A DNA stretch of 16,560 nt, from IMG/VR virus record IMGVR_UViG_2718218139_000004, positions 1 through 16,560 of that record. One strand, written 5' to 3'. This document shows, in pieces, positions 9,001-15,000 of this stretch (the first letter of the stretch is position 1; the number at the start of each line of letters is the position of its first letter). The position numbers were made by a program. Source of the stretch: a virus (taxonomy: Duplodnaviria; Heunggongvirae; Uroviricota; Caudoviricetes).

Positions 9001-12000
9001 GTCAGTTCCGGACTTTATAGTGTGCTCAGTTCATGGACAAAAACGATTTCTGTGATAAATATTTTGAATATTATTTACAGGTAAATGGAGTGGGGCGCAT
9101 GGATAGAAATATTACAATAGAGTATGAAGTATATGCCCGTATTGTATGGGCAGAGAAGGCAAAAACACGGTAATTCCGTGTGTTGCCATGATACCTGATT
9201 GGCAGAATAGTTGTTTGGTTTTGAGTATATAGTCAGCGTTTTTTGTTCAGTAATTGCCCCCTCAAAAAATAATAAAATAAGGTGATTATTTTTGTTTATT
9301 ATTTAGTTTTTTTGTGTGTTATTTTATTGTTTTTGCGTGGTTTGTTTTTTATTGTTATTTCATTAAGGGAAGGTAAATTCAGGATGGCAGTCTGTAGATA
9401 ATCGGAGGTCACTTATGCTACATGATCACGTGGCAGAATGTCTGGAGAAAAAAGGACTGTACCGGAGAGCAGCTGAACGATGGGCAAAAGTGATGGTACA
9501 GCTAAGTGATGACCAGAAAAGAAAAGTGGCGGCACAGAAACGAGCAGAGTGTTTGCGTAAGGCGCGCCGGACTCCGGTTTCACCGGTGAACCTGACCGAA
9601 ATAAAACAAGCGGTCAACAGACTACATTCTGAGTTGGGAATGGGATTTGAAGAGCGGCGGGTATTCCGACGATATAAAGGGACAGGAGAACAGAATACGT
9701 CCGGAAACGCGCGGTCAAAAAAATGCTAAAAAATATCTGAGAGCGTTATTGCCTGTTACCATAAGAAAAAGCGACTTTAGTGGTCGCTTTTTGTGTCATA
9801 TATAAGTCGTTTAAGTAAACCTGTCTGAACAGGTGCTCTGGTCGTGTTTGTCTTTGTTGGGTACAAATTGAGCATGTTTTTCATTAATTAATCTTCTTCT
9901 GCAGGCTTCAATAACCCACGCTGAAAAATTACCTGAACCTTTCTGATCAAGAGCGATGTTAATTTGTTCAATCATTTGGTTAGGAAAGCGGATGTTGCGG
10001 GTTGTTGTTCTGCGGGTTCTGTTCTTCGTTGACATGAGGTTGCCCCGTATTCAGTGTCGCTGATTTGTATTGTCTGAAGTTGTTTTTACGTTAAGTTGAT
10101 GCAGATCAATTAATACGATACCTGCGTCATAATTAATTATTTGACGTGGTTTGATGGCGTAGATGCACGTTGTGACATGTAGATGATAATTATTATCATT
10201 TTGCGGGTCCTTTCCGGCGATCCGACAGGTTACGGGGCGGCGACCTCGCGGGTTTTCGCTATTTATGAAAATTTTCCGGGAACCATGTCCGGTTTCTCTG
10301 CAAGTTAACTACATGAAAAATATAAGAACGGGCTTTCCGTGAACCGGACATGCGCAAAAAATGGACATATAAACCGGACATGATCGGTTTTGTGCTAATT
10401 GTGAGGTGAGAGTTTTTGCGAGGTGAGGAGTGGCTACGCAGACTGAAGTTGCCAGGCATTTAAGTCTGACCGATCGCCAGCTTCGCAGATTGCAGAAATT
10501 GCCGGGTGCCCCGATATCAAATAAGCGAGGGCAACTGGATCTGGATGCCTGGCGCGATTTTTACATATCGTATCTGAGGAGAAGTAAAAACGATGTGCCT
10601 GATGGCGATAGCGAAGACGACTATGAGGAGAAATTGCTTATTGCCAGATGGGAACTGACAGCAGAACAGGCTGTTACACAGCAGCTAAAAAATGAGGTGT
10701 CAAAAGGAAAACTGATTGACACCGGATTCTGTATTTTTGCCCTCAGTAAGCTGGCAATGGCGTTATCAAGTACGCTTGATTCCATCCCTTTATCCATGCA
10801 GCGACAGTTTCCTGATTTAACACCGCGCCATCTTGACCATCTGAAAACCCTTATTGCGAAGGGGGCAAATCAGTGTGCGCGGGCGGGGGATAAATTACCG
10901 GATTTACTCGATGAATATATCAGAGCAACAACTGAATAATATGATGAGCGCTGTCACAACAGCATCAGAGGATGCGTCCTCGTCCTCGGCTTCTGCGGCC
11001 GCTCAAAAAGCCAGTGAGTCATCACAAAGTGCAGCAGAAGCTGAATTGTCAAGAAAGACGGCAGAAAGTGCAGCCGGTAATGCAGCCAGGGATGCAACGA
11101 CCGCAACAGAAAAAGCCCGGGAGTCAGCAGAAAGCGCACAGTCAGCGGAACAAAGCAGGATAGCGGCGGAAGAGGCCGTAAACCGAATCCCCACCGTGGT
11201 GGGACCTCCCGGGCCAAAGGGGGAACAGGGGCCCGCGGGTCCTCAGGGGCCGAAGGGTGATAAGGGAGAGCGCGGTGACACCGGCCCTGTCGGGGCAACC
11301 GGCGAACGGGGACCGGCAGGTGATGCTGGTCCGGCAGGCCCGCAGGGGCCGAAAGGTGACATGGGAGAGCGGGGAGAGACCGGTCTGACGGGAAATGCAG
11401 GTCCACAGGGTCCAAAGGGAGATACCGGTGCGGCAGGCCCGGCAGGCCCACAGGGACCGAAAGGAGAAACAGGTGCGGCTGGCCCGGTGGGGGCAACCGG
11501 ACCTCAGGGACCGAAGGGCGACCCGGGGGAGACACAAATACGGTTCCGTCTGGGGCCGGGAAACATTATTGAGACAAACAGCAATGGCTGGTTCCCGGAT
11601 ACAGATGGCGCACTCATCACCGGACTGACCTTTCTTGACCCCAAAGATGCCACACGGGTTCAGGGTTTTTTTCAGCATTTGCAGGTCAGGTTTGGTGACG
11701 GGCCGTGGCAGGATGTCAAGGGGCTGGATGAAGTGGGCAGTGATACAGGCAGAACAGGAGAATGACATGAATATACTAAAAAAACTTATGCAGCGTCTGT
11801 GTGGTTGCGGAAAGCATGATGGCCGTGAACACGTGCAGTCGCTTACAGCACAACTGCGACTGGGGCCGGCAGACATCCTGGAGTCAGATGAGAATGGCAT
11901 TATTCCGGAGCAGGACAGGGTAATCACACAGGTGGTGATACTGGATACAGATAAAAAGCAGATACAGTGTGTGGTAAGACCGCTGCAAATCCTGCGTGCT

Positions 12001-15000
12001 GACGGGACGTGGGAAAATATTGGCGGGATGAAGTAACCCGACAGCTTCACAAAACCGGAGTCCGGCTCCGGTTTTTGTTGTCATGTCATGGTGATGTTTG
12101 TTAAGAAAGTAAAGATTGATTCATTTTGAAGGTTGAAATGTATGCTATCACCATCTTCTGTAAATTTGGGGTGTTCATGGAATTCTTTAACCAGAAACCT
12201 GACTTCTCCTGACAGTCGTATTTTATCCTCTGTAAGGGATGCAGCTGCTAGCTCGGATAATGGGGCGCAAGTAAAGGTGGGCAACAGAACATATCGTGTT
12301 GTTGTCACTGATAATAAGTTTTGCGTTACAAGAGAAAGTCATAGTGGTTGCTTTACTAATCTGTTGCACAGGCTGGGATGGCCTAAGGGAGAGATTAGCA
12401 GGAAAATTGAGGTGATGCTGAATTCATCGCCAGTGAATAGGGCTATGGAAAGAGGTGCTGTTCATTCGAATAGACCTGATTTACCTCCTGTTGATTATGC
12501 ACCGCCAGAGTTACCGAGTGTGGACTATAACAGCTTGCCTGTGCCTGGTAATGTTATTGGCAAAGGGGGTAACGCTGTAGTATATGAAGATGCTGAGGAT
12601 GCAACAAAAGTCCTGAAGATGTTTACTACATCTCAAAGCAATGAAGAGGTAACAAACGAAGTTCGTTGCTTCAACCAATATTATGGTGCCGGGAGTGCAG
12701 AAAAAATATATGGCGATAATGGCGATATTATTGGTATTAGAATGGATAAAATAAATGGAGAATCGCTTTTAAATATTTCGTCCTTGCCGGCACAGGCTGA
12801 GCATGCCATTTATGATATGTTTGACAGGCTTGAGCAAAAAGGAATTCTTTTTATCGATACAACAGAGACAAATGTCTTATATGATCGCACGAGAAATGAA
12901 TTTAATCCAATAGATATATCATCTTATAATATTTCTGAACGTTCATGGAGTGAAAATCAAATAATGCAATCTTATCATGGAGGAAAGCAAGATCTTATTA
13001 GTGTGGTATTAAGTAAAATTTAGTAATTTTATCCAGTGTAGTGGATTTGTTGCATGGATGGAGTTGGTAAAAAGTGGTGTGGCTGGCAATCCAGGCCGCG
13101 TCACAGAAATGGACAATGCCGCTGAGAGACTGGCGAATGGCATACAGGCACCAGAAAAATTTCAGACATGACATAATGCCCATGCCAGAAGTTCTTTTTG
13201 CACCTCGCCTGTATTTATAGATAAACATAGAGTGAATGAATGAGATATGAAAGACATTACCCTTCCCCCCCGACGTCCGCGTCCTGTCTGACAGGGGCCA
13301 TATCTGTAAATACTGAAGCTGTATTATCTCCCATGCAACACACTTCAGCCTTACATGTAAGAGATTTTGCTTCCCTGTGCTCACAGAACCTCAAAGCTAA
13401 TGTATTGCTAAATAGTGATGACCACGAAGTACCTATACATCAGAAAAATCCTGCTGCAATAATGCAAAATATCGACTCTAACATCAAACAGATGGCAACA
13501 GACTGGGGGATGTCGATTGAGGAGGTTGAGGTTATTATAGGGCGAGAGAAAGGCATTGTGGAACCCTCCTGCGGAGTTACCGCTAATGCTATTATGAAAC
13601 TATTTCTGGACAAGGATGGCTTCAGTTACTGCTTTGAAAATGAACAGACACTATCGCTCGAGCAGCTTCAGGAGCGCCTGTCCTGTATGCCTGAATGTAA
13701 GAGCTTTGTATTACGTGTTAATGATGGTGCGCTTGGTCATGCTTACATTGTCGATATTCCCAAAGGAGAAAACTCTTGTCGTCCTGCATTCTTGTATCAG
13801 TCAGATTTAGGAGAGGGCGTCACCAGAAAGTTAAGATTTGAGGACTGGATGACGCATAAAGCATTGACTCCGATTTTGCTGGATGATATTTGTAATTACT
13901 GGATTTGCCCCTATATTTCCAGACACCTGTTATCACTTAACCCATTACTGGCTTGCTGCCGTAGATATTCCCGTGGCGAGCGATAACCCAGTGCACTATG
14001 CGGATGCCATTCGTTATAATGCTCGAACGCCTCTGCAAGGTTCTTTGCTGCCGTTAACCCGTCTGGTTTGGGCATGACACTGATGTAGTCACGCTTTATC
14101 GTTTTCACGAAGCTCTCTGCTATGCCGTTACTCTCCGGACTCCGCACCGCCGTGCTCTTCGGTTCAAGCCCCAACATCTGTAGTGGTTAGTACGGTCTGC
14201 TTTACCTCCGGCATTTGGTCATTTAAATATTTGTGTAGTAAGTCACGGACTGTAAGTCCGTCAACAGCATTTGATGATGAAATGCCATATAGATCTAATA
14301 CCATCACTTTCTGTGTGCCCCATGTTTTAGCATGAGCATGAACGCGGCGGCTATCTCACGGGTGATCTGAGGTGTACTGGCAATAGCGGACACTACCATT
14401 TGTTCTTTTTTTAAGCAGCCATCTGATGATATTTTTCCCTGAAGGCTGCCGGGGAGATATTCCCCAGACGAGAGTGACGACGCTGACGATTGTAGAAAAT
14501 CTCAATGTATTCCCGTATTACTGAGATGGCTTCATCCCGGTTATTAAAACGATAGTGGCTCAGGCTCTCATTTTTCAGCGTTCCCCAGAAGCTTTCCATC
14601 GGAGCGTTGTCGTAACAGTTACCTTTACGCGACATTGATGTTTTCAGACCAAACTGCTCCTGTATGACCCGGTAATCGTATGCGCAGTACTGTGAACCTC
14701 GATCAGAGTGGTGGATTAGCCCGGCAGGTGGGCGCTGGCTCCTGAGCGCCATAAACAGGGCTTTACCTGTCAGCTCTTTTGTCATGCGCTCTCCCATGGC
14801 GTAGCCGACAATTTCGCACGTATAAACATCTTTGATGCCAGCGAGGTACAACCATCCCTCCTGTGTGGCAACATACGTCAGGTCCGCCACCCAGACCTGA
14901 TTTGGTGCTGTAGGAGCGAACGTCTGGTTCAGCAGATTTGGCGCAACTGGCAGATTGTGGTTCGAGTTCGTAGTCGCTCTGAACTTGCGTTTCTGCTTAC

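Follow-up and report, generated by a model that had tools for sequence, protein, structure and literature searches.

Two diverged Phage_fiber_C copies at the end of a lambdoid prophage fibre module: the downstream copy is a separate, conserved and translated 89-residue gene

The closest described relatives of the tail fibre considered here are EPclA and EPclB, collagen-like proteins encoded by prophages of enterohaemorrhagic Escherichia coli (EHEC). According to the original report (Ghosh 2012, PMC3368898), EPclA is built of PfN, a coiled coil, collagen and PfC, the last of which corresponds to PF06820 and constitutes a trimerisation knob. The same source states that the isolated PfC of EPclA is a trimer and that Col-PfC refolds reversibly, from which it was concluded that PfC nucleates the collagen triple helix; recombinant EPclA produced alone yielded aggregates and monomers besides the trimer, and PfC alone needed a thioredoxin (Trx) tag for expression. 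A second related system is the Shiga toxin 2 (Stx2) phage Sp5, for which a tandem PfC arrangement has been reported. Here, a PfC-only open reading frame (ORF) of 89 amino acids (aa), ORF68, lies behind the fibre gene ORF67, with ORF68 counted as a non-essential late gene and ORF67 as essential (PMC5155283). In this study we analysed a stretch of 16,560 nucleotides (nt) of a Caudoviricetes genome (IMG/VR record IMGVR_UViG_2718218139_000004; this whole stretch is called the window), in which a sequence-only reading had suggested that the C-terminus of a tail-fibre-like ORF and an adjacent 89-aa ORF carry diverged copies of one small domain. We found that this conclusion is correct but already known, since both the PF06820 domain and the tandem two-gene arrangement have been described before.

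When the fibre ORF was compared with the 89-aa ORF by BLASTP, the last ~62 residues of the former aligned with residues 29-88 of the latter (22/62 identities corresponding to 35%, 61% positives, 2 gaps, E = 1e-11), and the alignment reproduced the conserved pattern that had been noticed before (R-LGP..I.E...NG..P..D..IT....LD.......Q..Q.L....DG.W...G.). A score that does not stand out from shuffled controls had been named as refuting evidence, and this was not obtained. The Smith-Waterman score of the two ORFs was 103, whereas shuffled sequences scored 23.0 ± 3.9 with a maximum of 45 (z = 20.6), and none of 2000 shuffles reached the score of the two PfC copies. Pfam assigned Phage_fiber_C (PF06820) to residues 210-273 of the fibre ORF with 121 bits and to residues 28-89 of the 89-aa ORF with 121.9 bits. 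Both matches spanned profile positions 1-64 of 64, and the gathering score of this family is 25 bits. On the DNA level the two PfC copies share 56% identity with a longest exact run of 10 nt, and a DNA repeat scan detected no repeat between them. Taken together, the BLASTP alignment, the shuffle statistics, the Pfam matches and the low DNA identity indicate that the duplication is real and that the two copies diverged anciently.

The upstream copy forms the knob at the C-terminus of a collagen-like side tail fibre of EPclA type that belongs to a lambdoid prophage, and the downstream copy makes up most of a separate gene that has its own Shine-Dalgarno sequence and starts one base past the fibre stop. 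Residues 1-27 of the encoded protein form a basic N-terminal extension with an LCGCGK motif and the remainder is PfC. The order stop-C-ATG at the junction is an arrangement typical of translational coupling, so that coupled synthesis of the two proteins may be predicted. Orthologues of the small gene are Sp5 ORF68, the small 'tail fiber' ORF of the 933W group, ADN68460.1 of phage phi24B ('gp59') and the family phrog_576, which matched the 89-aa protein over positions 1-89 of 89 (2e-59). The orthologues of Sp5, 933W and phi24B are 89 aa long, 92-99% identical, start one base past the fibre stop and are followed by the same hairpin. Thus, the window gene has the properties of this group: a length of about 89 aa, PfC as only domain, a position directly behind a fibre ending in PfC and high identity. 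The genes of Sp5 and phi24B reside in inducible short-tailed Stx phages, whereas the window gene belongs to a long-tailed prophage in a degraded state, with nleH and cif as neighbours. In RefSeq the fibre is named 'prophage tail fiber N-terminal domain-containing protein' and the small gene product 'phage tail fiber C-terminal domain-containing protein'; no NCBIfam model matched the 89-aa protein.

To describe the conservation of the two-gene block, we collected 83 copies of the small gene (the 80 most similar IMG/VR loci plus reference loci, counting only copies that keep the MN[IV]LKK start). The 270-nt frame was intact in all of them. The junction CAGGAGAATGACATG, which comprises Shine-Dalgarno sequence, stop, one base and ATG, was identical in 79 of the 83 copies, and the fibre frame ended there in every locus. 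For 54 unique DNA alleles the Nei-Gojobori ratio of nonsynonymous to synonymous polymorphism (pN/pS, recombination ignored) was 0.125 overall at a pS of 0.11, with 0.097 for the PfC part and 0.34 for the 27-residue leader. For the fibre we obtained 0.26-0.38 for PfC and 0.38 for the collagen domain, and thus the small gene is held more strictly. These data indicate strong purifying selection. Among 50,697 phage records, tblastn found the 89-aa protein in 296 (88-99% identical) and the fibre PfC likewise in 296, with the same breakdown by organism. The carriers include the long-tailed lambda_2B8 and Lambda h434 imm21 as well as the short-tailed Stx phages phi24B and the 933W group, and thus the two genes form a fixed block in lambdoid phages with long tails and in Stx phages with short tails, both from E. 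coli and E. albertii.

The family of the small-type PfC is narrow. Among the matches listed (the best 120 of 177 protein clusters) it was confined to E. coli, E. albertii and Citrobacter rodentium, all clusters of this type were no longer than 131 aa and no full-length fibre carried it. A profile search of 1.84 billion representative proteins returned only 82 clusters, nearly all of which were Escherichia fragments. A distant collagen-like protein of 565 aa (P0238) was the only related-looking multi-repeat match; it has four tandem PfC-like modules (...GILRVRQADGTWKEIPAIKG) before a collagen stretch, which suggests that such modules can be stacked in series. The other multi-repeat matches, P0234, P0251 and P0253, look like low-complexity noise and were not retained as relatives.

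Evidence for translation of the small gene comes from the supplement of a phi24B cryo-electron microscopy (cryo-EM) preprint. In the available part of this source, the peptides VITQVVILDADKK and ADGTWENIGGMK, which are specific for the small protein, are listed for purified virions with three spectra each, which makes approximately 6 spectra compared with 2267 for the fibre gp61; these counts are approximate. The small protein is therefore translated, and a rough length-normalised estimate places its amount in virions far below the stoichiometry of the fibre. The authors also searched for hypothetical fusions between fibre and small protein and the supplement contains the comment 'Spike or just gp59?'; the main text mentions neither gp59 nor a frameshift or fusion.

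Conservation and translation bear on the simplest explanation of the 89-aa gene, namely that it is a functionless leftover of an old duplication or recombination that is kept by its linkage to the fibre gene and the terminator. Such a relic might be expected to be non-essential, as the gene is in Sp5 (PMC5155283), and the small ORF is indeed hosted by dead prophages in the window and in C. rodentium, while some loci have additional truncated copies further downstream. However, a pN/pS of about 0.1 over the 54 alleles, an intact frame in every copy counted, a conserved Shine-Dalgarno sequence and start codon, retention in all 296 phage records across two morphotypes and the peptides in the available phi24B data speak against this idea, and we consider it very improbable.

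In T2-type phages, gp38 is the adhesin at the fibre tip. By analogy, a trimer of the small protein might sit permanently and stoichiometrically on the fibre PfC as terminal knob and constitute the true adhesin. The gene is in the position of tip adhesins, its peptides were listed for purified virions in the accessible phi24B supplement, the basic extension and the acidic fibre tail carry complementary charges, and P0238 has its PfC-like modules in series. This model predicts 18 copies, but the spectra of the preprint, as far as available and with their approximate counts, roughly correspond to well below 1 copy per virion. Moreover, deletion of the small gene spares the infectivity of Sp5 whereas deletion of the fibre gene abolishes it (PMC5155283), and adhesins usually vary while the small protein is more conserved than the fibre tip. 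A permanent distal adhesin therefore appears quite unlikely to us.

Structure prediction by AlphaFold2 gave an all-beta model with six strands for residues 30-89 of the 89-aa protein (predicted local distance difference test, pLDDT, ~80-86) and a disordered leader with a low-confidence helix at residues 3-12. The top Protein Data Bank (PDB) match of this model in Foldseek was the Mu S fibre (5yvq_A, probability 0.99), two independent methods agreed on Mu tail fibres (8ju3, 5yvq) as best PDB structural matches, and the top matches among predicted viral structures were tail fibres of diverse phages. On the sequence level, hhalign aligned PfC to the terminal 58 residues of Mu S', albeit at a statistically poor E of 0.14, and the motifs RLG, G.W, ITG, RP(L/I)Q and (D/N)GTW.N.G are common to PfC and the end of Mu S'. 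Sequence searches of the PDB with the single protein and with the family profile retrieved only coiled-coil noise (optineurin, PKN1). With moderate confidence, we take PfC to be a putative Mu-like distal tip domain.

We tentatively propose that the small protein is a separately translated and dispensable partner in assembly or capping of the fibre tip, which we consider the most likely role although it falls short of being probable. The published part of the mechanism is that the PfC of the fibre itself forms trimers and acts from the C-terminal end as nucleus of the collagen helix. The free PfC paralogue would be produced in step with the fibre through translational coupling, would probably form a trimer of its own and might transiently join the fibre tip as non-essential partner. 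This contact may use the basic N-terminal extension of the small protein and the acidic 12-residue tail of the fibre, and the charge complementarity of these two segments is suggestive only. In this way the small protein would fill the genomic and functional slot that Tfa occupies behind Mu-like and lambda-like fibres, without being homologous to Tfa. The fixed gene pair, the purifying selection, translation, the tip-like fold and the imperfect folding of EPclA when it is produced alone support a partner role, and the ratio of ~6 to 2267 spectra together with the non-essentiality of Sp5 ORF68 suggests that this role is transient and accessory rather than stoichiometric and essential. As to the earlier suggestion of a receptor-binding or chaperone domain, trimerisation and collagen nucleation are published for the fibre copy (PMC3368898), and a chaperone-like role of the free copy is plausible but unproven.

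A more specific version of this proposal, which we regard as possible but rather doubtful, is that the 89-aa protein is a 'self-mimic', a helper of a new type derived from a duplicate of the trimerising tip domain of the fibre, that replaces Tfa behind collagen-like fibres and that transiently caps or templates the fibre C-termini. Its basic, cysteine-bearing leader would possibly dock on the acidic fibre tail. Such a helper would explain why the gene is retained 1:1 in two morphotypes and why it is more strongly constrained than the fibre tip.

Several observations weigh against a partner in fibre assembly. The fibre trimerises in E. coli when the small protein is absent (PMC3368898), and Sp5 lacking ORF68 is still infective on K-12 (PMC5155283), so that any assembly role must be dispensable in the laboratory. 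The small protein does not have the defining features of Tfa, and Pfam finds only PF06820 in it. Alleles of fibre and small ORF were freely reshuffled with 42 minor-allele combinations in 70 loci, and co-adaptation was not seen among them. The AlphaFold2 model of the fibre PfC was poor (pLDDT 56), and therefore the two PfC copies cannot be reliably superposed.

The leader of the small protein deserves separate consideration. LCGCGK (window 11797-11814, residues 11-16) is kept in the E. coli variants and in C. rodentium, whereas the following residues vary; this motif might bind metal or form disulfides in the trimer. We rejected the idea that LCGC marks a lipoprotein, since by inspection the residues before C12 (MNILKKLMQRL) are polar and charged and the C. 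rodentium protein as called starts with MHSLCGCGK. In C. rodentium (L087, 3494-4237) the fibre is a decayed remnant of 161 aa with its collagen region out of frame, and the small PfC gene has lost one base in an A-run and carries a 4-codon deletion; the same hairpin and downstream block follow, and then nleG. Fibre remnant and small gene both decay there, which speaks against a host-beneficial gene. This decay of the pair in old remnants argues for a phage rather than a host function.

Masking of receptors is known from phage T5, where Llp masks FhuA. When released at lysis or produced in small amounts, a free PfC trimer could likewise bind the ligand of the fibre tip or a conserved cell-surface ligand and prevent adsorption of progeny or superinfecting phages to debris or lysogens. 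A competitive blocker would be expected to resemble an unattached copy of the fibre tip domain, and high conservation, dispensability for plaque formation (PMC5155283) and the trace level in virions in the accessible phi24B data would fit. On inspection, however, we found neither a signal peptide nor a credible lipobox (LCGCG follows a short polar stretch, which in C. rodentium comprises three residues), and thus such a decoy could act only after lysis. There was no promoter-like site upstream on the plus strand, and the decay in the C. rodentium remnant speaks against a benefit for the lysogen. With only 35% identity to the fibre tip, a shared ligand is not implied. We consider a decoy function unlikely.

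The authors of the Sp5 study suggested an 'intragenomic reservoir' for fibre variation, in which the small ORF would provide an alternative fibre C-terminus that is swapped or fused by recombination or frameshift and alters the host range (PMC5155283). The fibre gene is directly followed by another copy of its C-terminal domain, as this interpretation requires, and two rare chimeras were found: P0063 (4 members) joins collagen directly to a small-type PfC and P0178 (1 member) combines the small-ORF leader with a fibre-type PfC. From 11635 onward no stop interrupts the +1 frame up to the small ORF, a T-run of seven bases (11667-11673, within GGT TTT TTT CAG at 11664-11675) lies in the fibre PfC, and according to the available supplement the phi24B proteome was searched by its authors against hypothetical fusions. 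Nevertheless, among the best 120 of 177 clusters the small-type PfC never occurred in a full-length fibre, and in the phage collection the fibre always ended in the fibre type. With 56% DNA identity and no more than 10 identical bases in a row, similarity between the copies is too low for homologous exchange to be likely. The T-run is not conserved, most alleles encoding GLF, GMF or GVF instead of GFF, and a frameshift signal was not found by the Sp5 authors either. In addition, the gene is preceded by a conserved Shine-Dalgarno sequence of its own and starts with a conserved ATG, and constraint on its protein exceeds that on the fibre copy. A reservoir of this kind therefore seems improbable. 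We specifically rejected programmed frameshifting or slippage as a route to fusion, because a -1 shift meets a stop at once, only +1 fuses the frames and the T-run is not kept.

Downstream of the small gene, a hairpin followed by a T-run (Table 1) reads as the terminator that may close the late operon. RNA folding of 12037-12086 gave -21.2 kcal/mol, and the hairpin, which was not listed by a simple scan, is kept in nearly all loci, with one loop base changed in phi24B. It is followed by a conserved block of 27 nt. This block occurs once in the window and not at the other cassette junctions there, and a promoter scan found no promoter in it. Prophage homology stops after the block, about 66 nt past the stop of the small gene, and cargo comes next, which is nleH in the window. 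Across 77 loci we counted 22 downstream cargo classes compared with essentially one upstream class, and the last sequence that long-tailed prophages have in common before the variable cargo is a block made up of the 3' end of the fibre gene, the small ORF and the hairpin. In six loci (L010, L014, L017, L024, L025, L037) a 5'-truncated second copy of the small PfC lies ~700 bp downstream; in L024 it is found at 3974-4172 and the two copies flank an ORF of 180 aa (3491-4033). These truncated copies are the footprint of cargo insertion via recombination inside the small gene.

The position of the block as last shared sequence, the 22 cargo classes and the truncated copies imply that it can act as left homology arm for cargo exchange. 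The sequence-only reading had considered the domain pair a linker or recombination module of exchangeable effector loci, and in this passive sense the suggestion holds. The recombination role is a by-product of the block being the last conserved phage sequence. A mere linker is not compatible with the data, as the small ORF is a coding gene under strong purifying selection (pN/pS 0.10-0.13) that is translated in phi24B. Short-tailed Stx phages also have the same block, with tail genes downstream instead of effectors.

Table 1. Positions of the PfC copies, the small gene and other features in the window
Feature	Position	Strand	Basis or remark
PfC copy 1, C-terminal Phage_fiber_C domain of the fibre	~11538-11729	+	PF06820
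Acidic 12-aa tail of the fibre, DEVGSDTGRTGE	after PfC copy 1, up to the stop	+	
Fibre stop TGA	11763-11765	+	
Shine-Dalgarno sequence AGGAG	11756-11760	+	6 nt upstream of the small-ORF ATG
89-aa PfC-only gene	11767 (ATG) to 12036 (stop)	+	PF06820; phrog_576
PfC copy 2	~11848-12033	+	PF06820, residues 28-89 of the small ORF
Intrinsic-terminator-like hairpin AAAACCGGAG-TCCGG-CTCCGGTTTTT with T-run	12051-12076	+	RNA fold
Conserved 27-nt block GTTGTCATGT...GATGTTTGTTA	12077-12103	+	79 downstream flanks compared; also in C. rodentium
Truncated fibre ORF, 284 aa	10911-11765	+	Terminase large-subunit codons plus partial coiled coil, collagen and PfC
Deletion junction	10965/10966	.	blastn of the window vs L001 and L002
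Collagen-like Gly-X-Y domain, ~110 residues	11202-11531	+	Pfam PF01391; direct-repeat families D1 and D2
Integrase gene	1-1074	-	
LpxR-like outer-membrane protein gene	2783-3742	-	Between int and Q
PerC-family regulator gene	9415-9729	+	Between lysis genes and Nu1

The fibre ORF of the window is not a complete gene. Its C-terminus is that of a fibre, as had been proposed, but the ORF as a whole is an in-frame deletion fusion in which 18 codons of the terminase large subunit are joined to the fibre from codon ~170 onward. When the window was compared by blastn with two related loci, the sequence left of the junction followed the terminase of L002 up to window position 10965 and the sequence to the right followed the fibre gene of L001 from nucleotide ~508. 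The deletion removed every head and tail gene from the start of the terminase large-subunit gene to fibre codon ~170. Pfam found only Collagen and Phage_fiber_C in this ORF, and the four-part EPclA-type architecture (PfN, PCoil, Col, PfC) is incomplete in it, with no match to the tail-attachment domain PfN (PF08400). Among 5426 complete E. coli genomes, a single one covers at least 80% of 10400-13100, and there the sequence consists of two joined pieces and does not show the junction of the window. The intact relative L001 (E. coli AMSHJX01) is a lambdoid prophage beside the bio operon with the gene order J, lom, fibre of 437 aa, 89-aa gene, nleH, cif, further cargo, espJ, ybhB and bioA. Thus, the window is the wreck of an L001-like lambdoid prophage and its fibre ORF is a dead remnant; since PfN is lost and all other virion genes are deleted, the gene pair cannot build a virion fibre there.

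Besides the features in Table 1, the window holds Q, lysis genes and Nu1. The LpxR-like and PerC-family genes are likely lysogenic-conversion cargo. The effector gene cif is cut: its ORF extends over 13240-13986 and the match to intact cif stops at 13900. The read-through tail is nearly identical to that of an unrelated truncated small-ORF protein (P0112), and we take this shared tail to be the end of an insertion sequence. Two inverted elements of 930 nt (14411-15340 and 15631-16560) are 100% complementary and 290 nt apart. They encode a transposase with an rve integrase core, are IS3-like judging by relatives, and the second copy reaches the end of the window.

These findings bring no major change to current understanding, but they have practical consequences. 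For annotators, the 89-aa gene is a real gene and no fibre fragment, and it is not Tfa by homology. Since homology ends sharply past the hairpin, the left border of effector cargo in lambdoid prophages can be placed precisely there. The phages that disseminate Shiga toxin and type III effectors in pathogenic E. coli bear collagen-like fibres, and in the phi24B cryo-EM preprint the role of the conserved lateral fibres is named as a question still to be answered; a strictly conserved and translated partner gene is a reasonable small target for experiment. A study on undetected receptor-binding proteins (PMC12309495) does not treat the 89-aa gene.

Compared with EPclA, the intact relative of the window fibre has with 437 aa the commonest length given in the Ghosh tables, and its collagen domain of ~110 residues also agrees; the window fibre differs by the deletion of PfN and part of the coiled coil. 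In vitro, the collagen domain melts at 42 °C. The architecture of a free-standing second PfC copy is not discussed in the available part of that paper (PMC3368898).

The tail fibres gp49 (S) and gp52 (S') of phage Mu (PDB 5YVQ, 8JU3) are the best structural matches, and the Mu domain and PfC each form the very C-terminal end of a fibre that is a trimer. The Tfa proteins (lambda Tfa, Mu gpU/gpU') resemble the small gene product in being encoded directly downstream of a fibre gene, and a tip-binding helper role is conceivable for the 89-aa protein. In Tfa, the N-terminal domain binds the fibre, is variable and has a central beta-sheet flanked by helices, and the C-terminal domain is conserved and alpha-helical (PMC9608196), whereas the 89-aa protein combines an all-beta PfC with a short basic leader and has no relationship to Tfa in sequence or fold. 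We therefore rejected a Tfa homologue: the only Pfam family is PF06820, NCBIfam finds nothing and the all-beta model lacks a Tfa-like helical domain. GenBank OM418627 labels the 89-aa gene 'tail fiber assembly chaperone', and this label is positional; in relatives, a remnant with a Tfa annotation is found farther downstream.

Exchangeable effector loci of lambdoid prophages were reportedly described by Tobe et al. in PNAS in 2006. In the loci compared here, cargo follows directly after the fibre module, with nleH and cif in the window and nleB, nleC, espM, nleG and others elsewhere. The PfC pair borders these loci as a conserved flank on the phage side and lies outside the exchangeable cargo.

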